From a virus, in IMG/VR virus record IMGVR_UViG_3300034069_000432, positions 9,219 through 73,218 of that record: 64,000 bases of DNA; one strand, 5' to 3'. The notes under the pieces were generated by a model that worked only from the letters and a program-made list of their open reading frames with translations, did no database searches and was not told where the DNA came from. A program made the translations under genes and the position numbers. Positions 2,138-58,241 of this stretch are shown piece after piece (position 1 is the stretch's first letter; every line of letters starts with the position of its first letter).

Positions 2138-2916
2138 TGACCAGAAAACGAATTTTGCCCCCCGATCGCCTCGCTGAATGCAAGGCAGCCCACGAACTGT
2201 TCCTGTCGAAAAAGAAGGAGTTGGGGCTGAGCCAGAAGAAAATTGCAGACGCCGCCGGTATAACGCCGGCCGCCGTGAACCTCTACTTCAAGGGGATCAA
2301 TCCCCTCAACGCGCAATTTGCCGCCATACTGTCCGAACAAATAAAGGAGCCTGTGGAGCGATTCAGTGCGCGCCTGGCTGCCGAAATAGGAAAGCTGACG
2401 CGTGCAACCCCAGACCGCGCCGCTGTTGCTTCGAACGCCGAGCTGCTTGGGCCAATTGATCTCTGGGATGACGACACGCCGCTCGATGACGATGAGGTGT
2501 ATGTGCCATTTCTAAAGGAAGTAGAGCTCTCGGCTGGCAAGGGACGCACCGCCGTAGAGCAGTCTCATAAACAGAAGTTGAGGTTCGGCAAGCTGACACT
2601 TCGCAAGCAAGGTGTTCAGCCGTCAGACGCTGTGTGCGTCACGGTGAGCGGGAATAGCATGGAGCCGGTATTGCCTGATGGCAGTACGGTAGGGGTAGAT
2701 CAGGGCACCACATCAATCACGGACGGTAAGATGTATGCCATCGACCACGGCGGGCAGCTTCGCGTGAAGACGCTATATCGTCTCCCAGGAGGAGGAATGC
2801 GGATGCGCAGCTTCAATCGAGATGAGCACCCCGACGAGGAATACTCAGCCATCGAGATGATCGAGATGGAAATCATTGTTCTGGGCCGGGTGTTCTGGTC
2901 TTCAGCTCTCTGGTAA
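2137..2916 (+). CDS. cI: CI repressor (XRE HTH + S24 peptidase)
   Basis: LSQKKIADAAGITPAAVNLYFKG HTH; VSGNSMEP and RVKTL Ser/Lys dyad. Confidence 0.95.
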   Translation: MTRKRILPPDRLAECKAAHELFLSKKKELGLSQKKIADAAGITPAAVNLYFKGINPLNAQFAAILSEQIKEPVERFSARLAAEIGKLTRATPDRAAVASNAELLGPIDLWDDDTPLDDDEVYVPFLKEVELSAGKGRTAVEQSHKQKLRFGKLTLRKQGVQPSDAVCVTVSGNSMEPVLPDGSTVGVDQGTTSITDGKMYAIDHGGQLRVKTLYRLPGGGMRMRSFNRDEHPDEEYSAIEMIEMEIIVLGRVFWSSALW

Positions 2917-2945
2917 AGCCCCGCGCGCCACGCGCTCAATAAAGG

Positions 2946-2972
2946 ATCCCGCCACGCGAGCGGGATTTTTTT
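2946..2972 (+). terminator. Intrinsic terminator after cI
   Basis: ATCCCGC-7nt-GCGGGAT-TTTTTT. Confidence 0.85.
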
Positions 2973-2990
2973 CGCCCACAGAAAAATAAT

Positions 2991-3031
2991 TAACCATCGG
3001 TGTTGACTTGGCAATAAACCGATGGTTAACT
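2991..3031 (+). promoter_or_regulatory. P_L promoter with two O_L operators
   Basis: TAACCATCGGTGT 2991-3003 and AAACCGATGGTTA 3016-3028; TTGACT-17-TTAACT (weak -10). Confidence 0.75.
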
Positions 3032-3079
3032 ACACCCATCGAAACGAATCAGCCCCTACCAAGGGCCTCCGGATCGAAC

Positions 3080-3088
3080 CGCTCTTTA
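3080..3088 (+). promoter_or_regulatory. boxA-like antitermination element
   Basis: CGCTCTTTA about 45 nt downstream of P_L, matches lambdoid/rrn boxA. Confidence 0.55.
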
Positions 3089-3351
3089 TCACCGCCAAGA
3101 TCCGCCCGAGGGAATCCCGGTTAGCCGGTACAAATGGGCGCAAAACATTCCCTCCCGAGCTGCGACGCGATGCGCAGTCACTGAAGCCCATGCATTCAGT
3201 GCGAACCAGGTGAGCACCTTCGAAGCGCCAGTAGCGCATAGAGGGCATCGGCAATGAGGGCCGAGTGCAGAAAGCCTGGGGAGAAACAGACTTCCTCGAT
3301 GACCTTGGCGACAGGGTCATCCGGAAAATCAACCTACGGAGAGACCCCGAA

Positions 3352-3483
3352 ATGACCACCAACAGAGTGCAGTGCCGCGATCAGGCCGAAGTGACCGAAG
3401 TCGCCGAGATGTGCACCGCTACCGGCTACCTCTACAGCGTCGATGAGCAACTGATGCTCACCTTCTGGAAAGCCCAACAGTAA
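3352..3483 (+). CDS. Small hypothetical protein (43 aa)
   Basis: MTTNRVQCRD..., GGAGAG RBS. Confidence 0.55.
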   Translation: MTTNRVQCRDQAEVTEVAEMCTATGYLYSVDEQLMLTFWKAQQ

Positions 3484-28042: not shown

Positions 28043-28458
28043 CCCGAGCACCCCTGCCACCCGGGATCATCCCAGTCGGCGCAACGCACTTCTACTTCGA
28101 CCCAGCGCGCCGGACGCCTGTCACCAACCCATGGCGGCGCCTAGAGGATGACGGCACGTGGCACATGATGCGCGGCGATAGCTGGGGCCGTATCACTGGG
28201 ACCAGCCGGCACAAGTTCTTCTCTATCACTGAAGCATTGCAGGCGCCGCCGTCCGATCTGGCTGCGGACACGCTGACGTTGCGGGACGACCTCGCGAAGA
28301 ATGCACCTATCACGTTTGAGCAGGCGATGATGCTATGGGGCGATGAAGGTGCAAACCTGAATGACGACACGACGCGCAAGTGCTTTTACGCGGTATGGGC
28401 TGGGCTGCGCTACGAGTTTGCAGATGAAATGCTCGCCGCCCGGAGGGCCAAGACATGA
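28039..28458 (+). CDS. Hypothetical protein (TLRD...YEFADEMLAAR family C-terminus)
   Basis: Related motif to 4763..5020. Confidence 0.7.
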   Translation: MTRAPLPPGIIPVGATHFYFDPARRTPVTNPWRRLEDDGTWHMMRGDSWGRITGTSRHKFFSITEALQAPPSDLAADTLTLRDDLAKNAPITFEQAMMLWGDEGANLNDDTTRKCFYAVWAGLRYEFADEMLAARRAKT

Positions 28459-28742
28459 CGGCTGACCTGAACTACCTGCGCGCCGAACTGCATCGAGCCA
28501 TGCAGCAAGGCGCCCGCAGCATGAACGTCGGCATCGAAGAACTGAGCTCTATGCTGGCAACCATCGACTCGAACAAGGAGCGCGAGGCTCGCGAGTTCCA
28601 AGGCAAGCTGTTCGGCTTCGTTAAGATCCACAAGGCCCGCGCGATGCTGTCGGGATCGCGCGTCTACCTAACAGTCAGCCACGTCAAGCATGCCGACTTC
28701 GCGATGCCGCTCTACTTCACAGGAATACCAGAGGCGCCGTGA
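28455..28742 (+). CDS. Hypothetical protein
   Basis: ATGA coupling; last gene before convergent terminator. Confidence 0.7.
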   Translation: MTADLNYLRAELHRAMQQGARSMNVGIEELSSMLATIDSNKEREAREFQGKLFGFVKIHKARAMLSGSRVYLTVSHVKHADFAMPLYFTGIPEAP

Positions 28743-28754
28743 GGCGCCTTTTTT
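28732..28754 (+). terminator. Intrinsic terminator between convergent early and late operons
   Basis: AGGCGCC-GTGA-GGCGCCT-TTTTT. Confidence 0.8.
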
Positions 28755-30411
28755 ACACCACTTTAACTTCGCGGTTCTTCATGATCCTGAACCGGAACAC
28801 GCCGGACGGAGCGACATCTGTAGCCAGATATGCCGACAACCTGAAGCGGTGATCAGTGATCCCGTCGATCGATGTAAACGGCGGCGTCCGCTCGCGCCCA
28901 GTCCGTGCCAGCGCGCTCATAGGTTGAGTGGCGTACCGGTTGTTGTCCCAGTTGATCAGCGTGCTGCTGCCGGCTTCCTGCATACCGAGCTGAACCGATA
29001 GCACGCCCGCAGTTCCAGGGTCGAAGTCGTACTCGATCCAACCCTCATAGGTCTTGCCAGTCACCAGGCCGCCCTGCAGGCCGATCTGGCGCAGCATATC
29101 CACCGCAGCGTTTGCGGTCGCGACGGTACCGCTCAGGCGAACCTCGCACCAATCAACGCCGTTCTTCGTGACTCTCCGGTACTCGATGACCGTGCCAGTA
29201 GTGCCGGTGGCCTTTGCGTTCGTGTAGCCAGTCGGCGGCGTGGTGCTGTAGGTAGTCGTCAGGCCTGCCAGCAGCGACACGTTCGTGTTCAGCGCGCCTG
29301 TATCGGTAGCGTCTGGCAGGTCCATAGGCCCGCTGGAGTAGATCTGTTTGAGTACGATCGCGTCTGCCGGCGCCGTGACTTCCTGCACGTACAGGTTGCC
29401 CGGATGCTTGCCGTCTTGTGGTGACCACTTCTCGAGCAAGTCGAAATCGGTGCCAGCCTTGAGAAGCTGAGCGAAGCAGTCGACGACGTAAGAGCCAGGC
29501 CCAGGCAGCTCTGCCAGCATCCTGGCGTTGCGCGCCTTCATATCGGCAGCGACCGCAGTCGTCGGGCGGTTAGCCGGGAACGCATCGTTACCGCATGGCG
29601 CGATCGTGTGGAAAATGATGTTCGTCTTAGCGGCGAATGCCTTCTGCTTCCAGGTCAGCATCTTCGACAGCGTCTGATCTACTGTCAGCAGCGCATCGTT
29701 AATGCCGTTCCATACGTACAGCGTGCCGCCAGTGCAGGCAGCTAGTGCCGCGTCGAATCGAGCATCAATCTGGTTGGTGTCATCGCCACCATTACCGAAA
29801 GCGCCAGCAGGGCCCAGACGACGAACAACCTGTCCCGACTCATCGGCCGCACCAGTAGCCACACCGTAGGATCGGTATCCGTCAGTCGTGTACTGCCCGT
29901 TGGAAATGAATGAATGGCCGAGCTCTGCCATAAGGTTGTTCGCCGGCGCGCCAGCCCATGCGGAAACGCCGGCAGGCAGTCCGGTCCAGATCCACCCATT
30001 ACGACCGGACGCAGTCGTAGATGCCCAGCGAGCATCAGGGATCAGCGCGTTGCCAGAAGCCTGATTAGTAAACAACCCTGCCGGCGTCACATACACCATA
30101 TCGCCAGCAGCGACCGAAGCAGACGCAAGCACCGCAACCGGCCCGCGCTTGATGATCCTCGCTGATTCAAACTGCGAGAAATGGTTGCCGCGCGTGACTG
30201 AGCGATCCATGACAGCGATGCCAAGGTACTGCAAGCCGGTGTAGACGACGCAACCACGCGGATCAGCGCCCTGCGACACGGGCATCCCCATATACACGCC
30301 GGCCGCAGACTCGACGTTGCGCGATATCAGATCGCACTCCGTCATATCACGCAAAAATCCCGGTCGCAGTGCCGGGATGTTGACCAAATACTGAGTTTGA
30401 ACAGCCGGCAT
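28753..30411 (-). CDS. Capsid decoration domain-SGNH hydrolase fusion protein
   Basis: aa 1-144 align without gaps to 51878..52312 (86/144 identical by hand); then GHSF, GNGG, GIND, DGKHP SGNH blocks. Confidence 0.8.
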   Translation of the reverse strand: MPAVQTQYLVNIPALRPGFLRDMTECDLISRNVESAAGVYMGMPVSQGADPRGCVVYTGLQYLGIAVMDRSVTRGNHFSQFESARIIKRGPVAVLASASVAAGDMVYVTPAGLFTNQASGNALIPDARWASTTASGRNGWIWTGLPAGVSAWAGAPANNLMAELGHSFISNGQYTTDGYRSYGVATGAADESGQVVRRLGPAGAFGNGGDDTNQIDARFDAALAACTGGTLYVWNGINDALLTVDQTLSKMLTWKQKAFAAKTNIIFHTIAPCGNDAFPANRPTTAVAADMKARNARMLAELPGPGSYVVDCFAQLLKAGTDFDLLEKWSPQDGKHPGNLYVQEVTAPADAIVLKQIYSSGPMDLPDATDTGALNTNVSLLAGLTTTYSTTPPTGYTNAKATGTTGTVIEYRRVTKNGVDWCEVRLSGTVATANAAVDMLRQIGLQGGLVTGKTYEGWIEYDFDPGTAGVLSVQLGMQEAGSSTLINWDNNRYATQPMSALARTGRERTPPFTSIDGITDHRFRLSAYLATDVAPSGVFRFRIMKNREVKVV

Positions 30412-30920
30412 CAGCCACCTACCTTACATTTTGATTCCAGCGATCGAACTCGATCCTGAAGGCCTATTATTTGGGCTCGCTGCTTGGCGATTCCGCTGGT
30501 GAGACTGAGATAATTGCGTTCAGCATTGGCATCAAGTCGGATGGTGGCTGCATCAGCGCTGCCGGCGTCGGCTCGGGCGACTCCAGGACTGGACACACAG
30601 ACGCCGTGGACTTGCAGCCGCTTACGAGCAGCAGCAAGGTCAGAAGAAAGGGCGAGGCTTTGCTGATCGGCGTCATTTGATGCCTCCTGGAATCGCTGGG
30701 CGGCTGCTTGAGATTCGGTGTTGAGTTCGCGCTGGAGCTTGGCGGTCGCCTGCATTGAAGCGATGCGCGCGGCGGATGTGCTGGCTTGCTGTGCGTACTC
30801 ATCGCGCTGAGCCGATATAGACTCGATGCGCGAGTGCTGGAACCATAGCGCTCCAATCACTACGACGGCCACATACAGCCACCAAGGGATCAATCGGAGC
30901 ATAGCCAGCACGGCTGTCAT
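30411..30920 (-). CDS. Rz: i-spanin (Rz-like)
   Basis: N-terminal TM, coiled coil, RLQVHGVC, DANAERNYLSL. Confidence 0.9.
   Translation of the reverse strand: MTAVLAMLRLIPWWLYVAVVVIGALWFQHSRIESISAQRDEYAQQASTSAARIASMQATAKLQRELNTESQAAAQRFQEASNDADQQSLALSSDLAAARKRLQVHGVCVSSPGVARADAGSADAATIRLDANAERNYLSLTSGIAKQRAQIIGLQDRVRSLESKCKVGG
30467..30676 (-). CDS. Rz1: o-spanin (Rz1-like lipoprotein) embedded in Rz
   Basis: GGAGG RBS, LLLLVSGC lipobox, Pro-rich. Confidence 0.85.
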   Translation of the reverse strand: MTPISKASPFLLTLLLLVSGCKSTASVCPVLESPEPTPAALMQPPSDLMPMLNAIISVSPAESPSSEPK

Positions 30921-31450
30921 GCGATGACCCGCAGAGCCTGCGCATACCGCGCCTTGCGGTCTTCAGCGCCGTTAGTGCCGCCGTTTATTTTGCGCGTGAT
31001 AGTGTCGAACTGATCAGACTCTGCCAAAGCAGTGAGCCCGCGGGAGTTCCAGAACCACACGGCAGACTTGGCGGCCCACTCCGGCTGCTCAAGAATTTCA
31101 GGAGCGGATAGCAGACGATCGTCACCGAATAGAGCCTTGCTGGTTGCCGTGTAGTTGGCGCGCCCGGTAACCTGAATCAGCCCGCGCCCGGCGAATTTGG
31201 CGCCATCGCCCGGCTTTATGTTGCCCAGGTCTTTGCGGCCGTCGTACTTCTTGAAGTAGTCGGCGCCACCCAGCTCTTTGGTGTAGTAGAACGAGCCGGA
31301 TTCGTGGCCGACTTGGGCGAGGAATGCAGCGACCGCCTTGCGGCTGGTAATGCCGCCGGCACTCATAGCAAGCTCAAGCGGTGCGGCCCACTTCTGAGCG
31401 CGAGCAAGCGGCATGTTTGGAACGGCTTTGGATAGGGTGTCTGGAGTCAT
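30917..31450 (-). CDS. Endolysin, glycoside hydrolase family 19
   Basis: AAFLAQVGHESG, GRGLIQVTGRANY, ITRKINGGTNG. Confidence 0.95.
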   Translation of the reverse strand: MTPDTLSKAVPNMPLARAQKWAAPLELAMSAGGITSRKAVAAFLAQVGHESGSFYYTKELGGADYFKKYDGRKDLGNIKPGDGAKFAGRGLIQVTGRANYTATSKALFGDDRLLSAPEILEQPEWAAKSAVWFWNSRGLTALAESDQFDTITRKINGGTNGAEDRKARYAQALRVIA

Positions 31451-49566: not shown

Positions 49567-50268
49567 ATGAATACACAAAAACTTTGCTCTGTTGAAGGGT
49601 GCGGCAACATCCATCAATCAAAGGGCTATTGCGACAAGCATTATCGAAGGTTCCGCGCCCACGGCGATCCTCTTGTTGCAAGAATACCATTTGTAAAAGC
49701 GGTGTGCTCAGTAGAAGGCTGCCTAAGAGAATCCGAGTGCAAGGGCTTCTGCAAAAAGCACCATGCTCGTTTTGTTAGGTGGGGTGATCCCCTGATGGGG
49801 AATACTGACGTTGGCGGACCGCAAAAGTGGATTTTGGACAATGCCGGGCATGACGACGATGAATGCCTGATATGGCCTTTTGCCAGATATCCTGCCGGAT
49901 ATGGATACCTGATTGTTGGGAAAGTAAAAATGAGCGCCAGCAGACGAATGTGCATGGTGGCGCACGGCGACCCAGATTCTCCAGAATTACACGCTGCCCA
50001 TTCTTGCGGAAACGGCTTTGGAGGATGCGTGAATCCTAAGCACTTAAGATGGGCAACAAAGCTAGAAAATGAGATGGATAAAATAATCCATGGGACTATA
50101 AGAAAAGGTGAGAAACACGGCATGCACAAGCTTACCGAGGATGAGGTGCGTCAAATTAGATCGCTAAGGCCATCCCATACGGCAACAAGCCTAGGAAGAA
50201 AGTTTGGAGTTAGCAGAGCTTGCATTGACAGCATTACTAATGGAAAGAATTGGTCTTGGCTTAAATAA
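49567..50268 (+). CDS. Free-standing HNH homing endonuclease, antisense to late operon
   Basis: CSVEGC...GYCDKHY twice; HAAHSC...CVNPKHLRWAT...N; KLTEDEVRQIR. Confidence 0.9.
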   Translation: MNTQKLCSVEGCGNIHQSKGYCDKHYRRFRAHGDPLVARIPFVKAVCSVEGCLRESECKGFCKKHHARFVRWGDPLMGNTDVGGPQKWILDNAGHDDDECLIWPFARYPAGYGYLIVGKVKMSASRRMCMVAHGDPDSPELHAAHSCGNGFGGCVNPKHLRWATKLENEMDKIIHGTIRKGEKHGMHKLTEDEVRQIRSLRPSHTATSLGRKFGVSRACIDSITNGKNWSWLK

Positions 50269-50934: not shown

Positions 50935-51864
50935 TTACACCCCGTCCAAGTAACGAACAGACTGCGGTAGACGGATGTCCAGGCCGCCCAGACGGAACAA
51001 GCCCGGCACTTCCCAGCGGATCGGGCCAGCCTGATACACAGGCATGAACCGGTGAGGCATCGGGATGTACGCCTTCAGCACGCTTGGGTCGCGACGGTAT
51101 GCCACGATACGAGCAGTGCCGCCAGCGCCGGCAGTCAACAGGCCGTAGATGCCGCGGATCAACAGAGGGCGTCCAGTGGTCTGGGTGTACAGGTTCGACT
51201 GCATGATGAACTGGTACACAGTCAGAGTGGTGTTCGGCATCAGCGTCTGGTTCAGCAACTGCAGGCGTTCGAACGGCAGCAACAGGGTATCGGCGACGGA
51301 CGTGTACTGAGTGCCGGAGTAGGTCGGCATCAGTGCGGCGTTGATGTCAGCGATGATCTGCTGTGGAGTGGTATTGCCAGTCCAATTGCCGGTCGGCGCG
51401 GTGATCGCGGTCACGGCGCTGTTGCTAATCAAACCCTGGAAGCCCTTGCGAGCATCACCGCGCAGCAGCACACCGTCTACGAACTCTTCGTAGGCGCGGC
51501 GAGCAGCAGCGGCGTCATCAGCCTGAAGTGGCAGGCCCAGCATCTGAGCCTGGCTGATCTCTTCCAGACCGTAGCCGTAGCCGATACCAGCGGTGAAGAC
51601 CTGGGACTCGTACTTGGTGCGCTCGCTGCCAGCACGTGGAATGTCGTCGCTGTTGCCGTTGATCCAGTTGGCCTGACCGAACTTGTCACCCGAGAAGAAG
51701 GTAACAGTCTTGACCCACTCAGGGGCGGACGAGTCCACCGGGATCAGATCCTGATACTGGATGTCGGCGTAGACGATCTGATTGACCTGACGCTCGATGT
51801 AAGTCGTCTGGGACAGCACGAAACCCATCGCAGCCTGGGCGTCGAGCAGTTTAATTTGAGCCAT
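50935..51864 (-). CDS. Major capsid protein (DUF2184/HK97-fold)
   Basis: QTTYIERQV, GIGYGYGLEEI, RLGGLDIRLP; start MAQIKLLD. Confidence 0.92.
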   Translation of the reverse strand: MAQIKLLDAQAAMGFVLSQTTYIERQVNQIVYADIQYQDLIPVDSSAPEWVKTVTFFSGDKFGQANWINGNSDDIPRAGSERTKYESQVFTAGIGYGYGLEEISQAQMLGLPLQADDAAAARRAYEEFVDGVLLRGDARKGFQGLISNSAVTAITAPTGNWTGNTTPQQIIADINAALMPTYSGTQYTSVADTLLLPFERLQLLNQTLMPNTTLTVYQFIMQSNLYTQTTGRPLLIRGIYGLLTAGAGGTARIVAYRRDPSVLKAYIPMPHRFMPVYQAGPIRWEVPGLFRLGGLDIRLPQSVRYLDGV

Positions 51865-51877
51865 GCTTGACGCTCCT

Positions 51878-52312
51878 TTACTTAACGAAGATGTCGCCGA
51901 GGACGCCCGACGCAGTGGTCGTGTCCCAGCGGGAGTTTGGAATTGCGAAGTTGCTGGTGGCAACGTTGGTGAACAGGCCGGCAGGGGTGATATAGACCGG
52001 ATCGCCGGCTGCTACAGCAGCGGATGCCAGCACGCAGATCGGGCCTTTCTTCAGGATGCGGGCCGACTCGTAGCGGCTGAACAGCTCGCCAATCTGAACG
52101 GAACGATCGCGAACGGTGATTCCGAGGAAGCCAGTGCCTGCGTAGGCAATGCAGCCGTCTTGGTCAGCGCCCTGGGCAACCGGAACACCAAACGCGATAC
52201 CGGCTACGGTCTCAACGTTACGGCTGATCAGGTCCGCCTGGGTCATGTCCGGAATATGGCCGGCCTTGCGAGCCGGGATATTCGTGCTGTAGGTAGATTG
52301 AATGGCTGGCAT
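51878..52312 (-). CDS. Capsid decoration/cement protein
   Basis: 144 aa beta-rich protein between protease/scaffold and MCP; IAFGVPVAQG, AVAAGDPVY. Confidence 0.8.
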   Translation of the reverse strand: MPAIQSTYSTNIPARKAGHIPDMTQADLISRNVETVAGIAFGVPVAQGADQDGCIAYAGTGFLGITVRDRSVQIGELFSRYESARILKKGPICVLASAAVAAGDPVYITPAGLFTNVATSNFAIPNSRWDTTTASGVLGDIFVK

Positions 52313-52315
52313 CGC

Positions 52316-53446
52316 TTACGCTCCTTTACCGGCGGTTTTCCACGCCTCGGACTTGGATTTCTCCCAAGCATCTTGGCCGTTGTCGTTGATGGTGGTCTTG
52401 CCGTCCTGCGCGATGAAGTGCTGGCGCATCGGATCTTTGTTGGCGTCTTCCAACAGGATGTCAAAGCGGGCGTCGACGTAGGCGTCGGACTTGCCAGCCA
52501 GGGCAGCATCGCCCAGCTTAGCCAGCACTGCGGCCTTGCGGATTTCGGCGTCGGACTTGCCGGTGTAGTCGGCGTCACTGATCAGGCGAGCGTTGGTGAT
52601 CAGATCGGCGCGTTGCTTGACGCGAGCGTCGAGAGCGGCATCGGTCAAAACCTTAGCTTTCAGGCCGTCAATCTCGGCGTCTTTCTTCGCAAGATCAGCG
52701 TCTTTCAGCGCCAGCGCGGCAGCATAAGCGTCAGCCAGTGAGGTGGTTTTATCCGCGGCATCGCTGAGCTGCTTGGTCAGCTTTTCGATAGCCTGGGCGC
52801 CTTGCTCGGTCACTTCGATGGTCAGGCCATCAACAAGCAGTTTACGCAGTGCATCAGCCATGTCATGGCCTCCGTTTGGTGTTTTTGGTGCGGGATTATT
52901 ATCGCCGATACGGGTGTTGCCCGCACGTGGATTGTTGTCGGGCAGGTAGGCTACGTGATTGAACCGCAGCGGGCCTTCCTGCTTGAATTCGTAGGGGGTG
53001 CCGTCCGGGGCTGTGCCCGAGTCGCGCACGATTGCAACGCTGTAGCCGGCAGAGAGTGAGCGGGCGCCTGCGGCAATCTCTTTGGCTGCGGTTGAGTCCA
53101 TGATCGCCATCGAGGCGACCACATGCTCACCGTCGCGGCGCACTGTGCCACCCATTTGGCCGACAGCCAGATCTTTCCAGTTGTCAGCGGTTACGCCTTC
53201 ATCGGGATGGCCGCGAGTGACGGGTCGACCCGCAAGCGAAAGCATGCTGGCGTTATCGAAAACCACATCGGGATCGCGGTACACGCCGAACACCTTATGC
53301 TTTTCTTCGCCATCCAGGCCAAGCTCATGGCCGTAGTACTGCTGCACATTGCCCGCACGCGATACACGCGCATCGCCCACAAGATACCCGTCCTGAGTTA
53401 ACTTCAGGCCGGACGCATCAAGCGTAAGGCTATCGACAATGAGCAT
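52316..53446 (-). CDS. Prohead protease/scaffold (DUF2213)
   Basis: GYLVGDARVSRAG, PVTRGHP, LSAGYS, NHVA, RAG. Confidence 0.9.
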   Translation of the reverse strand: MLIVDSLTLDASGLKLTQDGYLVGDARVSRAGNVQQYYGHELGLDGEEKHKVFGVYRDPDVVFDNASMLSLAGRPVTRGHPDEGVTADNWKDLAVGQMGGTVRRDGEHVVASMAIMDSTAAKEIAAGARSLSAGYSVAIVRDSGTAPDGTPYEFKQEGPLRFNHVAYLPDNNPRAGNTRIGDNNPAPKTPNGGHDMADALRKLLVDGLTIEVTEQGAQAIEKLTKQLSDAADKTTSLADAYAAALALKDADLAKKDAEIDGLKAKVLTDAALDARVKQRADLITNARLISDADYTGKSDAEIRKAAVLAKLGDAALAGKSDAYVDARFDILLEDANKDPMRQHFIAQDGKTTINDNGQDAWEKSKSEAWKTAGKGA

Positions 53447-53725: not shown

Positions 53726-54190
53726 TTAGAGCAACGAAGAGTTGCGGATTGTGTTGAGCGCGGTTCCGTCCCACTGGTAATCAGTCCAGCTGGAGCCAAG
53801 AATATTTTTCAAGCCTGAAACCCCTGCTACCTGGATGCCAAGGGTAGTAAGCGCGGCCAGCGCTGTAGGTCTGACGATGGTCAGTTCGAAGCCTGGGTAC
53901 AGATTAGCGGTCTGCAGCGTGAGAACCATGCTGGCCGTGTTCGTGCCGGTAATCGACATGATCGTCGGGCTGAGCAGCGGCGTAATAGAGATTGCCGCAG
54001 CAGCCGGCACAGCGCCCATGAGCCCGCGCCTGATGTGCTTCCAGTTCGTGCCATCGGAAAGCACCATATCCGAGCCGCCGCCCAGATCAGTGACGTACGC
54101 GTACTTCGCCTGAAAGCTGGAAGCCGGGGGAAGGCTGGCGACCGTGTACAACCCTGGCAGAACCGCGCTGTTACCACCGAACAAAGGCAT
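53726..54190 (-). CDS. Putative minor virion protein
   Basis: YTVASLP...AYVTD...SDGTNW, motif seen in phage fibres. Confidence 0.6.
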   Translation of the reverse strand: MPLFGGNSAVLPGLYTVASLPPASSFQAKYAYVTDLGGGSDMVLSDGTNWKHIRRGLMGAVPAAAAISITPLLSPTIMSITGTNTASMVLTLQTANLYPGFELTIVRPTALAALTTLGIQVAGVSGLKNILGSSWTDYQWDGTALNTIRNSSLL

Positions 54191-54567: not shown

Positions 54568-55911
54568 TTACTCCTCGACAGGCGCGTCCGGGGCGCCGGT
54601 AACTGGTGGTTCTTCTGGATCTTCAGGCTCAACTTCGGTGCCGAATTCTTCGATTGCCGCCTCAAGCCCGGGGAGGACATTGCCCTCGACCAGAGTGGTG
54701 GTGGCGGCCTTGCTGAGCGCTTCTTGATTGAACAGCTGCGTATCCGAAAGAGTTTTGATCGTGTCGGCTACCGTCTTTCCGATGGTTGCTCGCTCTGCCG
54801 CTGTAGGCTGCCAGAGAATGCGCCAGTCGTAATAAATCTCAGTTGGCCGCGAGCCCAGCGCAGAACGGATCAGGCACTCATCGAAGATCGACAGCGTCTG
54901 GCTCAAGCCAAGCTTCTGCAGCGCACGCACGTGGTCGTAGTAGTTGCGCAGGTCAGACTCGCCGCTAGACGATAGGCCTGCCGGCGACTGTCCAAGGAAC
55001 CGCACAGCCGGCACATCAAACGCGCCGCAGACCTTCTGGTCGAACCGATCCATGATGTCTGGAAGGTTGCTGAATGAAGCGGACTTGGTCTCATAGTCCT
55101 CCTCCTTGTCCAGCATCAGCATTCCGTTGATGCCCTTACCCGTAGCAGCCAGGCTGAGACGCTGGAGAACGCGGTTGCGATACTCCTGATCGTCCATCTG
55201 CTCCATGAAGTTCGGGATCTTGACCACGTCGACCTTGGCCTCGAAAACCATACTGGCGACGTTTGCGTCTACAGACTCAGATTGCTTTACGGTGTTGGAT
55301 GCGGCCAGCAGGATTGAATCTCCCCAGCCGCGGTCCTGCACGCCCAGTAATTCGTTATCGGGATACGGCGCGCCGATGAACACGATGACGCGCGATGGGT
55401 GGATGCGTAGCTGAGGCGAGCCAGTGGGGATGTACCATTTCGGCTTGTCGAAGTATTCGGATTGCGGATCGGTTTCGGTGTCCCCCGGAGTCAGCTGGCG
55501 CTTGCTCATGACGTTCAGGTACTTGATACCGCCAGCCTGCACGCGCTCTGGATCCAGGCGCAGCGACAGGTCACGATCTCCAGTGCCGATAAAGATCGCA
55601 GCACCGCCAAACAGGCGCGCCTTGGTCATCGCCTCCTTGACTTTGTTCTGGACATTCAGGCGCTTCTCTTCGGCCTCGATAGCCTGTATCTGCTTGCTGT
55701 CCGCCTGCCATGCGCGCCACTCGCGCGTCGCGTCAAACGGCAGAATCTCGACACCCTTGCGCGCCATCCACGACCCACGATAGGCGTTGACCAACTCCTG
55801 ATCCGTGATGAACGGCATATCGAACTGGTTGTGGCTCGCCTTGTCCCGGCCAGTGCCAAGGTTGGCAACCAGGTTGACCAGCTTGTCGTTCAGGTAGCGG
55901 ACTACGCCCAT
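54568..55911 (-). CDS. Portal protein (DUF1073 family)
   Basis: AYRGSWMARKGVEILPFDATREW, ARLFGGAAI, GQSPAGL, DLRNYYD; follows terL. Confidence 0.9.
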   Translation of the reverse strand: MGVVRYLNDKLVNLVANLGTGRDKASHNQFDMPFITDQELVNAYRGSWMARKGVEILPFDATREWRAWQADSKQIQAIEAEEKRLNVQNKVKEAMTKARLFGGAAIFIGTGDRDLSLRLDPERVQAGGIKYLNVMSKRQLTPGDTETDPQSEYFDKPKWYIPTGSPQLRIHPSRVIVFIGAPYPDNELLGVQDRGWGDSILLAASNTVKQSESVDANVASMVFEAKVDVVKIPNFMEQMDDQEYRNRVLQRLSLAATGKGINGMLMLDKEEDYETKSASFSNLPDIMDRFDQKVCGAFDVPAVRFLGQSPAGLSSSGESDLRNYYDHVRALQKLGLSQTLSIFDECLIRSALGSRPTEIYYDWRILWQPTAAERATIGKTVADTIKTLSDTQLFNQEALSKAATTTLVEGNVLPGLEAAIEEFGTEVEPEDPEEPPVTGAPDAPVEE

Positions 55912-58241
55912 TAGGAAACGCCTGCGAGTGAGTATTTGCGCCGCTTCTTGGCGACAGCGAAGTATCGAAATGCGTCGGCGGCGTGCGAGCAGTTATGCAC
56001 GACAGCGCCGTTTGCCAGAGTAAAGTGCTCTACTCCCGGCACTGTCAAGCAGTATACATCCTCAACCACCGATAGTCTTGTCACGCTTTGCACTTCGATA
56101 TGCGGAAGCTTTGCAATTTGCGTGGCAAAACCGTTGCTGGTGGCCATTGTTTCGAACAAGAGCTTCGTATTCGTTCTTGCACCAGTCGCATTTTTTGAGC
56201 TCTCGCTTCCACTTTGTCCAGCCTTGAGAGGTGATAGCGTGCTGCCTATGCCACTCTCTGCCAGCAGGCGAAGCATGCCAGTCGGCAGCAGCTTTTTTTG
56301 CATCATCGCTAAACCAGCCCTTGCCAGCTCGCATAGATTTGACTTTATCAGAAAAACCTTTACCCAAATGCTCAGACGCTGGCAAGCACTCAAGATTGCC
56401 GAGCGAGTTGTTGGTTTTTTCTTCGTCGATGTGGTGTATGTGGCATCCTTCAGGGATTTCGCCAAAGGCGTCGCGCCAAACTGCTCGATGAAGTCTTTCT
56501 CCGCCAGCAGCAAAGTATCGCTCACTCGGGTATATCCGGTAGAGCTTTCCGAGAAAGTACTGGGTTGCTGGGTCAAGCCTGACAGGATCTTGAAACCCTT
56601 CTCTAGGCTTTCTGCGGATTTCCACCCGTTCGCCGTCAAGAATTTGTGCTCCGGCGTACATCTCACTGTACTTCCGTTGGCAAATAGGACCTCCACAAGT
56701 AGGGCATCCTGCTTTGTTTTCCTCGGGTTTTGATACTTCTTCCATCCGCATAGCGTCCACACCTCTCCAGTTTTTGGTAGGTCAACTATACGTTGCATTC
56801 CGTTACGCGTCAGCAGCCGTGTATCGGACGTGAAGCACCAATCGTGGAGAGGCTTATCTTTCCAGCACCCTCTTTTGTCGTCCCACTCTTTCCGATAGCT
56901 CTCCAGCGCCTTGACACCCTGCTCCGTCTTGGCGTCGTCGAACCAGCAGTGCTGAAGTATCTCACGCACAGCTTCGATACCGTCATCGATCCCAAGCTTT
57001 GGCACGACGGTGAACTTCAGCGAGTACTTCTTGCCGTCGATTTCGTAGCCTTCACGCGCAATCTCACGGCGCGTCTTACCGTCGCTGCCAAACTCCCGGT
57101 TATCGATGTCATGCGGGCCCCAGTGCTCGCTGTAGGTGTACCCCCGGTCCTTGATTACTTTCATGTAGTGCCGCAGGCCTTCGCCTGAGTTCTCGTAGAA
57201 GTCGATGACGTGATATTCTTCACCTACCTGGCGCACGAACCAGATCGCAGTCGAGTCGCCAACGCCGATGTCCCAGATCGTGAACACGGGCTGATGCGAG
57301 TTATCCGGCAGCTTGGTTATGCGCTTCTGCTCGTAAATCTTGGCGAACTGGGTCGCGTAGTACGCCCCCTCGACCGACTGCTGGAACGCCTCAGCCGGAA
57401 TCGAGGGGTACTCACGCTTCATGTCGTCGCCAAGCGTCTTCTCCTTGGACCAGTACCAGGCGCGCTGCTCGGGAGTGGTGACCACTCCGTGCTTCTGCTC
57501 AAGCTGGGTGAAGTAGTCCGTCAGCCGCTGCGGCAGCTCAGCCAGCACAGGCTCGGCGTAACCTGCATTGCGCCACCAGGAGAAGAAAAAGAATTTCCAG
57601 TCCAGACGACCCAGCGGCCGGCCGGCTATCTGGTGCTTTTCGGCGCTGTCCGAGTAGTCGAAGAAATACCCAGCGCGCCCCTCGGCCGTCGACTCGATCG
57701 TGATGAAGCAATCGGCCGCCACCGCCTCGAACGCGCCGGTAACGATCTCCCGCGCCTTGTGCGGATACTTTGCGCAGATCTTCCCGAACTCTGAAACGTG
57801 CAGGTAGCGCAGGGTACCGCCCCGGAACGATGTCGAGACGTACAGCGACCCGCCCTTGCTGAAAACCAGCTCGCCGGCACTGTCGTTGCGCGCTGGGTTG
57901 GCTTGCTTGATTTCGTCAGGGAGATTGTCGTATGCGAACTTAACTTTCTCGCGGAACAGCCTGTGAGCGTCAGGCAGTGTATGCGCGATTAGTGCGCACT
58001 TTGCTGATTCGAATAGCGCTGCGTCTAGTTGAATAATGCATTGTTCGGTAGTGAAGCCAAGTTGTCGGGCTTTGAGGATTATGTTTCGGTTGTGCATGCC
58101 GTTGTAATAATCAAGTTGCTCCTGCGTCATCTTGAATCTTACTTTCTTCCCGGCCTTGTCTGTAATTACATACAAGTTTTGCAGGCGCCATAACTTCTGA
58201 CGCAATAGAGCCAACCACTCAGGCTTCACTTGATAACTCAT
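55911..58241 (-). CDS. terL: Terminase large subunit precursor containing an intein
   Basis: IILKARQLGFTT, LHVSEFG, ESTAEG, WDIG, HDW|...|CSHAADAFRY. Confidence 0.95.
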   Translation of the reverse strand: MSYQVKPEWLALLRQKLWRLQNLYVITDKAGKKVRFKMTQEQLDYYNGMHNRNIILKARQLGFTTEQCIIQLDAALFESAKCALIAHTLPDAHRLFREKVKFAYDNLPDEIKQANPARNDSAGELVFSKGGSLYVSTSFRGGTLRYLHVSEFGKICAKYPHKAREIVTGAFEAVAADCFITIESTAEGRAGYFFDYSDSAEKHQIAGRPLGRLDWKFFFFSWWRNAGYAEPVLAELPQRLTDYFTQLEQKHGVVTTPEQRAWYWSKEKTLGDDMKREYPSIPAEAFQQSVEGAYYATQFAKIYEQKRITKLPDNSHQPVFTIWDIGVGDSTAIWFVRQVGEEYHVIDFYENSGEGLRHYMKVIKDRGYTYSEHWGPHDIDNREFGSDGKTRREIAREGYEIDGKKYSLKFTVVPKLGIDDGIEAVREILQHCWFDDAKTEQGVKALESYRKEWDDKRGCWKDKPLHDWCFTSDTRLLTRNGMQRIVDLPKTGEVWTLCGWKKYQNPRKTKQDALLVEVLFANGSTVRCTPEHKFLTANGWKSAESLEKGFKILSGLTQQPSTFSESSTGYTRVSDTLLLAEKDFIEQFGATPLAKSLKDATYTTSTKKKPTTRSAILSACQRLSIWVKVFLIKSNLCELARAGLAMMQKKLLPTGMLRLLAESGIGSTLSPLKAGQSGSESSKNATGARTNTKLLFETMATSNGFATQIAKLPHIEVQSVTRLSVVEDVYCLTVPGVEHFTLANGAVVHNCSHAADAFRYFAVAKKRRKYSLAGVS
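55992..56837 (-). mobile_element. Intein (282 aa) in TerL nuclease motif
   Basis: C1 CFTSDTRLLT, block B TPEHKF, block F VYCLTV, block G VVHN, +1 Cys. Confidence 0.95.
56062..56760 (-). CDS. HNH endonuclease nested in the -1 frame of the intein
   Basis: LHRAVW...IPEGCHIHHIDEEKTNNSLGNLECL...H; C-terminal CDWC...FCHANC. Confidence 0.88.
   Translation of the reverse strand: MDAMRMEEVSKPEENKAGCPTCGGPICQRKYSEMYAGAQILDGERVEIRRKPREGFQDPVRLDPATQYFLGKLYRIYPSERYFAAGGERLHRAVWRDAFGEIPEGCHIHHIDEEKTNNSLGNLECLPASEHLGKGFSDKVKSMRAGKGWFSDDAKKAAADWHASPAGREWHRQHAITSQGWTKWKRELKKCDWCKNEYEALVRNNGHQQRFCHANCKASAYRSAKRDKTIGG

Follow-up and report, generated by a model that had tools for sequence, protein, structure and literature searches.

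The siphovirus considered here is known from a 74.9-kb IMG/VR virus record (IMGVR_UViG_3300034069_000432) that is rated as complete by CheckV, and the 64,000 nucleotides of it that were analyzed are referred to as the window. The minus strand of the window bears a late (structural-lysis) operon that runs from the small and large terminases through the portal, a protease/scaffold, a 144-amino acid (aa) cement protein, and the major capsid protein (MCP) to neck and tail genes, the tape measure, a fibre that bears an S74 chaperone, a 624-aa beta-helix tailspike, and a J-like protein, and that closes with holin-like genes, a GH19 endolysin, the spanin Rz, and a 552-aa open reading frame (ORF). This final gene (28753..30411, minus, a strand that the original prediction left unstated) is the subject of the present analysis. 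On the basis of the ORF list, Pfam, and PHROG, it encodes a cement-like N-terminal domain, an SGNH esterase, and, at the C-terminus, a beta-sandwich similar to carbohydrate-binding modules (CBMs), with phrog_563 covering residues 1-141 and phrog_6102, annotated as ‘lipase’, covering residues 147-549. The product is probably a virion protein, and the most likely reading is that it places a polysaccharide O-acetyl esterase on the outer face of the capsid.

The N-terminal domain (residues 1-144; 29980..30411, minus) is a paralogue of a trimeric decoration protein with a beta-tulip fold, as assigned by BLASTP, Pfam, AlphaFold2 (AF2), and Foldseek. BLASTP aligns it with the 144-aa product of the same genome without gaps at 86 of 142 positions identical (61%, E 3e-58), exactly the number that the original prediction had counted by hand. 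That product is the plain cement (decoration) protein (51878..52312, minus; PF22758, PF23982, phrog_563). As also proposed, its gene lies between those of the head maturation protease/scaffold (52316..53446, minus; DUF2213, the Pa193_gp24 family; PF09979 E 2e-40, phrog_530 E 1e-89) and the HK97-type MCP (50935..51963, minus; PF09950, phrog_264). The translation start of the MCP is probably the ATG at 51864, 13 nt past the cement stop codon, which would give a protein of 309 aa; the ORF has an internal Met followed by AQIKLLD, and the MCP of a syntenic relative has 308 aa. The plain paralogue thus sits in the canonical cement slot between protease/scaffold and MCP, while the fusion gene lies 21.5 kb away, behind Rz, in agreement with the earlier estimate of more than 20 kb from the head module and a place after the lysis cassette.

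Membership of both copies in the Pam3/E217 cement family is well supported. The Pfam model PF22758 (Phage_cement, E217 gp24/Pam3 gp6; cut-off 27 bits) scores 71.5 bits over residues 4-137 of the fusion and 97.3 bits with the plain copy, and the fusion matches the Pam3 cement chain (PDB 8hdt_G) by sequence with an E of 8e-10. An AF2 model of residues 1-150 attains a mean predicted local distance difference test (pLDDT) score of 92.8 and retrieves with Foldseek the same Pam3 chain (TM 0.80, E 2e-11) and E217 8frs_f (E 3e-7), TM values to the Pam3 and E217 decoration proteins ranging from 0.68 to 0.80. Further matches include the decoration proteins of T1, XM1, and Pa193 and the base of the phi29 head fibre (6qyy/6qvk).

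Proteins of the Pam3/E217 family form trimers at the icosahedral and quasi three-fold axes, in which most contacts with the capsid and with adjacent trimers come from an N-terminal arm (PMC9942802; PMC10329688). Measured against 109 plain cements, the fusion keeps 20 of 23 family-conserved residues, and a second fusion, described below, keeps 18 of these 23 columns; the arm residues Q5, Y8, and G18, which are 90-100% conserved in the plain proteins, are retained in both. Such residues would be superfluous in a domain that served only as an oligomerization tag. A complex prediction with two plain cement chains and residues 1-150 of the fusion returned a score of 0.00, which counts neither for nor against binding.

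Residues 145-156 (29944..29979, minus) form the junction, with the module boundary at residue ~148. At about this residue, the DNA begins to be homologous to the esterase gene of L008, an unrelated P22-like contig, and the esterase homologues align from the junction onward, their N-termini being unrelated. The position at which DNA similarity begins indicates that the fusion consists of a complete cement protein and a complete esterase module, connected by about a dozen linker residues.

The SGNH (GDSL-type) carbohydrate-esterase domain (residues 157-359; 29335..29943, minus) is identified by motifs, conservation, and fold match. All four blocks named in the original prediction are present, with GHSF at residue 165, GNGG at 206, NGIND at 235, and DGKHP at 333. 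The predicted catalytic residues, namely Ser167 of block I, Gly208 of block II, Asn238 of block III, and Asp333 and His336 of block V, are invariant in 18 homologues. The domains were modelled separately, and the model of residues 145-552, built from 18 homologues, has a pLDDT of 73.6; confidence is low at the first residues of the esterase model and falls below 50 in the block I-II loop region (model residues 22-70). VIA-align superimposes residues 157-359 on many SGNH esterases with Z values of 12-13.5 over 160-181 residues at a root-mean-square deviation of 3.1-3.4 A. The best fold matches are a polyvinyl-alcohol esterase (9kqz), an acetyl-xylan esterase (7tog), a sialic-acid esterase (7pzg), and a CE3 enzyme (5b5s), superimposed at ~3.3 A over 170-181 residues. 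No Pfam GDSL/SGNH model matches the fusion at E <= 0.1; the close homologues reach 19-21 bits against a GDSL cut-off of 32.9, which the more distant P0026, P0027, and P0030 pass. PHROG 6102 aligns residues 147-549 of the fusion with positions 19-439 of its 442-position profile at E 1.1e-18. With Pfam GDSL below threshold, it is the motifs, PHROG 6102, and the fold match that identify the domain as SGNH.

The C-terminal domain (residues 371-552; 28756..29301, minus), described beforehand as a beta-rich region of ~180 aa, is a beta-sandwich by model, Foldseek, and VIA-align. It resembles CBM4, CBM70, and CBM61: Foldseek returns CBM70 4d0q, CBM4-2 1k42/4bj0, and the C-terminal domains of Klebsiella phage tailspikes at E 3e-6 to 1e-5, and VIA-align gives Z values of 10-11.5 over 137-157 residues to 4bj0, 4d0q, 3p6b, and 2xom. 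No Pfam CBM model matches this domain.

The original prediction had proposed looking for the same domain architecture in other phages, and a HMMER search of 1.84 billion representative proteins retrieves one other cement-SGNH fusion, the 567-aa P0028. A word-based search with region 1-145 of the fusion found no other long proteins sharing the N-terminal domain. The cement domain of P0028 is 49% identical to that of the fusion and is followed by a diverged PHROG-6102 SGNH module (E 6e-42) with intact GDS, TND, and DGIHP (DxxH) motifs. On its 39-kb contig (ERR15285263_1083), the genes are ordered as in the window: portal, protease, 144-aa cement, and MCP, then tape measure, beta-helix tailspike, J-like protein, and lysis genes, with the fusion gene behind Rz. 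Between these two syntenic phages, the plain cements are 79% identical.

In maximum-likelihood trees, the two fusion N-domains form one clade with long branches (support 96-97/92), which is nested inside the plain-cement clade of these phages (support 99-100/95). Within the window, plain and fusion paralogues share 56% nucleotide identity, with saturated synonymous divergence (dS) and a ratio of nonsynonymous divergence (dN) to dS of about 0.2; no gene conversion between them is seen, the sliding nucleotide identity staying at 0.52-0.67. The nested clade, the saturated dS, and the dN/dS ratio together point to a single, old duplication event, after which selection has maintained both domains in each of two lineages.

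Outside this pair of phages, the esterase module occurs behind other N-termini. None of the 17 close homologues (62-87% identical) has the cement domain; they begin instead with one of four kinds of N-terminus: ~25 residues, either of two unrelated domains of ~80-100 residues, or ~320 residues with Big_2 Ig domains. One homologue directly follows the scaffold and major head genes, which is the classical decoration slot, two lie among head-completion/neck genes, and those with the short N-terminus lie upstream of terS in P22-like phages. In tblastn searches, the variable N-termini have no paralogue within +/-10 kb on their own contigs, and no cement-like remnant was found upstream of the short forms. 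These arrangements mark the esterase as a modular unit that is linked elsewhere to head or virion gene modules.

In one P22-like contig (L009), an Alginate_lyase2 gene (PF08787, 54 bits; 2587-3441) stands two genes upstream of the short-N-terminus esterase homologue P0017 (3800-5071), which suggests a lyase and deacetylase pair acting on alginate. The fusion module is 29% identical to the SGNH protein of Lyrsu01. In LUZ24-like P. syringae podophages, exemplified by Lyrsu01 (L001, 3597-7218), this homologue follows a ‘particle-associated lyase’ in the structural module, which makes another lyase-esterase pairing. Among the more distant relatives, 80 of 95 records are Pseudomonas phages. A distant member, phiPsa374 gp053, is tied to the PHROG 6102-type family by a chain of homology and is abundant in purified virions by liquid chromatography-tandem mass spectrometry (PMC9796965).

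A short motif in the N-terminal region (residues 97-138) of a homologue with Big_2 domains (P0003, L005) recurs, with a pairwise E of 2e-5 and 39% over 49 aa, in a 154-aa ORF of the head module of the window (53726-54190, minus), which is flanked by the portal and protease genes. A 154-aa ORF occupies the same portal-protease slot in the syntenic relative. The common motif may be another virion-attachment motif.

Among cultured phages, the phiPSA1/psageB2/MR15 group of Pseudomonas syringae is nearest, with a portal 55% and an endolysin 51% identical. This group encodes an unfused 414-aa ‘lipase’ after Rz, adjoining the integrase, that represents the archetype of PHROG 6102; phiPSA1 gp16 matches the profile at E 7e-176 and aligns end to end with the esterase module of the fusion at 23% identity. 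The phiPSA1 genome has a single, distant PF22758 cement. The unfused esterase in the same slot, together with the single plain cement, implies that the esterase slot is ancestral and that the cement domain was grafted on. The suggestion that the whole gene is a later acquisition is therefore not supported, as the esterase was already resident and the duplication is old; what is new in this lineage is the grafting of a cement domain onto a resident esterase gene. The phage relatives and the plant-metagenome source make a plant-associated Pseudomonas the probable host. No prophage relative came up when genome contigs were scanned with the esterase alignment or the portal, and no GenBank phage matched the 8-kb region by megablast.

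The surroundings of the fusion gene are those of a late operon end. Its ATG overlaps the stop codon of Rz (30411..30920, minus; phrog_13 E 6e-21) in the sequence TGATG, and the GH19 endolysin (30917..31450, minus; phrog_181 E 2e-61) precedes Rz. Embedded in Rz in another frame is an ORF (30467-30856, minus) with a lipobox-like LLLVSGC and a proline-rich tail, which is likely the Rz1 o-spanin. A consensus scan found no promoter-like site upstream of the fusion gene. Beyond its 3′ end, 4 nt past the stop codon, lies a perfect GC hairpin read from the sequence (GGCGCC-TCAC-GGCGCC, 28733-28748) that adjoins a T6 run on the plus strand (28749-28754) and contains the stop codon of a plus-strand gene (28455-28742). 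This element (28733-28754) is likely a terminator between the convergent early (plus) and late (minus) operons; the consensus terminator scan does not list it. The fusion protein has no signal peptide or membrane segment, its N-terminus starting like that of a cement protein, and no integrase gene is adjacent to the fusion gene within the window.

Two further observations concern the structural part of the operon. The 776-aa large terminase ORF (55911-58241, minus) has split PHROG matches, with phrog_26724 at residues 6-194 and phrog_2472 at 185-469, which fits an intein insertion. Opposite the head-neck module lies an ORF for a Cys/His-rich HNH-like protein of 233 aa (49567-50268, plus), and HNH_3 genes are dispersed at comparable positions in the syntenic relative, which suggests that the structural operon harbors mobile homing endonucleases.

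A capsid-anchored esterase, the interpretation put forward in the original prediction, is favored by the genuine cement domain, by the retained conserved residues, and by the presence of a plain and fusion pair in a second phage. It stands as the best reading of the gene: the identities of the domains, the intact catalytic residues, the paralogy, the conserved gene pair, and the gene context are established, while display itself is the part that we infer, along with incorporation into capsids, stoichiometry, substrate, and benefit. Residues 1-144 would sit in the cement positions of the HK97-type shell, on its icosahedral and quasi three-fold axes, either as homotrimers of the fusion or mixed with the plain protein, and the linker of ~12 residues would lead outward to the esterase and the CBM-like beta-sandwich. 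The fusion is probably the minority subunit, since the plain gene has a strong AAGGAG Shine-Dalgarno sequence 8 nt upstream and lies beside the MCP gene, whereas the fusion gene comes last among the late genes, coupled to Rz.

Once on the virion, the enzyme would strip acetyl groups from a surface or matrix polysaccharide of the host. An acetylated Pseudomonas polysaccharide is the likely substrate, given the fold matches to carbohydrate esterases, the plant-metagenome source, and the Pseudomonas phage relatives. Candidates include O-antigen, alginate, and acetylated cellulose, and for alginate the single hint is the alginate-lyase neighbor of one homologue. O-acetylation is known to hinder alginate lyases. 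Deacetylation could benefit the phage by easing virion movement through the matrix, by assisting the tailspike depolymerase, or by preventing trapping after release.

Several observations weigh against capsid display. The fusion gene lies after the lysis genes and outside the head module, and unfused relatives in that slot (phiPSA1 gp16 and the P22-like contigs) have no recognizable anchor, so that the family can work without one. The fusion N-domains evolve ~3x faster than the plain cements of the same phage pair (dN 0.49 vs 0.15), which could reflect a relaxed capsid-binding constraint. The fusion is absent from related phages whose cements are 69-77% identical, which makes it dispensable. 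Three 44-kDa cargos per trimer could be sterically hard to accommodate at full occupancy, and no RNA run was found to contain the fusion sequence.

Some of these points lend themselves to a different explanation, in which the protein stays out of the capsid, its cement domain is a trimerization module or a decaying relic, and the esterase is freed at lysis to modify exopolysaccharide around the burst. Free phage depolymerases released at lysis offer an analogue. Such a soluble enzyme would suit a slot after holin, endolysin, and Rz, which is that of the unanchored esterases, and the accelerated N-domain. It is nonetheless unlikely: residues conserved across the family, those of the N-arm included, are retained in both fusions, the boundary of the domain falls exactly where a complete cement protein ends, and the N-domain remains a high-confidence, intact cement fold even though dS is saturated. 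Two further arguments against it are that the gene pair is conserved in two phages and that other esterase modules occur, with other N-terminal domains, in head or neck slots. A compromise between the two, in which the fusion assembles on the capsid and is then cleaved such that the esterase is shed and a cement-like stub stays behind, has a parallel in a proposal for phi24B gp84, whose processing and loss of density beyond the anchor are reported in a preprint (bioRxiv 10.64898/2026.04.10.717836). The short flexible linker and the low pLDDT at the start of the esterase model are compatible with cleavage, but no autoproteolysis motif or protease site was identified and nothing in the sequence requires it, so that a transient anchor is rated as quite unlikely.

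The remaining explanations dispense with the capsid altogether. PHROG 6102 and the GenBank records name the family ‘lipase’, and the gene adjoins Rz, with which it is translationally coupled; both facts would agree with a lipase or lysophospholipase of the SGNH type that acts at the end of lysis on lipids of the outer membrane or on lipopolysaccharide acyl chains, much as mycobacteriophage LysB does on the mycolyl layer. This role is very unlikely for a protein that lacks a signal peptide or membrane segment, whose best fold matches are carbohydrate esterases, and whose C-terminal domain is CBM-like, and it leaves the capsid-cement domain without a function; moreover, homologues reside in head/neck modules far from lysis genes. 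A role in lysogenic conversion, as a moron that the prophage expresses to alter the surface of its host, is most improbable. The PHROG label ‘moron/auxiliary’ and the position of the unfused phiPSA1 homologue next to the integrase at the prophage end favor it, whereas the overlap with the Rz stop implies late-operon expression, and neither an export signal, nor a promoter-like site upstream, nor an adjacent integrase in the window was found.

Capsid display by a cement domain may extend beyond this pair of phages. P0138 (352 aa; L023, 1012-3088) is an extended cement encoded directly upstream of the MCP, the sole cement copy there, with ~200 aa extra; P0104 (240 aa) and P0159 (785 aa) are further C-terminally extended cements, and atlas clusters of cement proteins of 244-272 aa exist. 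P0159 (L022, 4002-8441) combines a cement N-domain with ~620 aa of cargo that has weak sialidase/GH43-like atlas features (score 0.80, weak leads) and has too few homologues for alignment-based folding. Its gene lies immediately upstream of one for an Acyl_transf_3 and SGNH (OafA-like) O-acetyltransferase. Together with the phi29 head-fibre match, these extensions indicate that the cement fold tolerates C-terminal cargo. A tentative generalization, held with rather less than even confidence, is that the PF22758 fold serves as a general natural display adaptor. In this phage group, plain and enzyme-bearing paralogues would then co-assemble into a mosaic coat in which a minority of three-fold sites bear an exchangeable polysaccharide-modifying module, and P0159, P0138, and P0104 would represent the cargo of other phages. 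If so, the head would join the tail in host-matrix processing.

Phage heads are usually viewed as inert containers, with polysaccharide enzymes placed on tails, and the precedents for esterases displayed on capsids are few and recent. The closest in architecture is phi24B gp84, whose decoration of the capsid has been shown by mass spectrometry and cryo-electron microscopy in an April 2026 preprint (bioRxiv 10.64898/2026.04.10.717836). Like the present fusion, gp84 has an N-terminal capsid-binding domain, a carbohydrate O-acetyl esterase, and a C-terminal jelly-roll/lectin domain, and its gene lies in the late cluster away from the head genes. In contrast, its anchor is DUF1737, a hexamer of ~55 residues that plugs hexon centres rather than a trimeric cement paralogue, its catalytic domain is of the SASA/NanS type, no plain paralogue competes with it, and its host is enteric. 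There is no detectable sequence relation, and neither DUF1737 nor SASA has a Pfam match in the fusion, so that gp84 is best treated as an analogue by architecture only. The second precedent is a protein of Enterobacter phage PG7 in which a Hoc capsid-binding domain precedes a GDSL hydrolase; PG7 encodes a plain Hoc-like protein as well (Fokine/Rao, PMC10385173). It differs in being anchored through Hoc, a monomer at the hexon centres of T4-like heads, in being known from sequence only, and in belonging to an unrelated phage group.

Other systems share individual parts of the design. Pam3 gp6 and E217 gp24 belong to the same PF22758 family as the N-domain and the 144-aa paralogue by hidden Markov model, sequence, and predicted fold, but they are stand-alone structural proteins without enzymatic cargo. 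The phi29 head fibre gp8.5 has a trimeric capsid-binding N-terminal base of related fold from which its C-terminal part projects outward; its cargo, however, is a coiled-coil fibre without an enzyme, and it lacks a plain paralogue. Occupancy of the phi29 capsid by gp8.5 is optional. The PHROG 6102 protein phiPSA1 gp16 and the related SGNH proteins of Lyrsu01, VCM, and phiPsa374 (gp053) have the SGNH and beta-sandwich module but no cement domain. Tailspike deacetylases of O-antigen or capsule, such as G7C gp63.1, the esterase tailspikes of Vi-phage and Schitoviridae, and those of Moo19/B2, are virion-borne SGNH esterases that act on host surface polysaccharide; they are tail-mounted receptor-binding proteins and not capsid proteins.

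A trimeric three-fold cement is a different and very common anchor, and no enzyme fusion to the PF22758 beta-tulip cement was found in the literature. Besides this anchor, the features that appear to be new are a plain paralogue that would compete for the same sites, the conservation of the pair in two lineages, and the acquisition of a cement copy by a resident esterase. A plain and a cargo-bearing paralogue in one genome also provide a built-in comparison. If capsid display is true, the locus would show how a structural protein can, after duplication, become the adaptor of an accessory enzyme that was already resident, and that esterase modules are swapped among phages behind different virion anchors, as tailspike modules are. 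In engineered mosaic display on phage lambda, the trimeric three-fold decoration protein gpD serves as a fusion anchor alongside plain gpD, with mixed occupancy. The fusion described here would be the natural counterpart of that man-made system and, as such, a natural template for displaying enzymes on capsids for the biocontrol of plant-pathogenic pseudomonads and for biofilm penetration.

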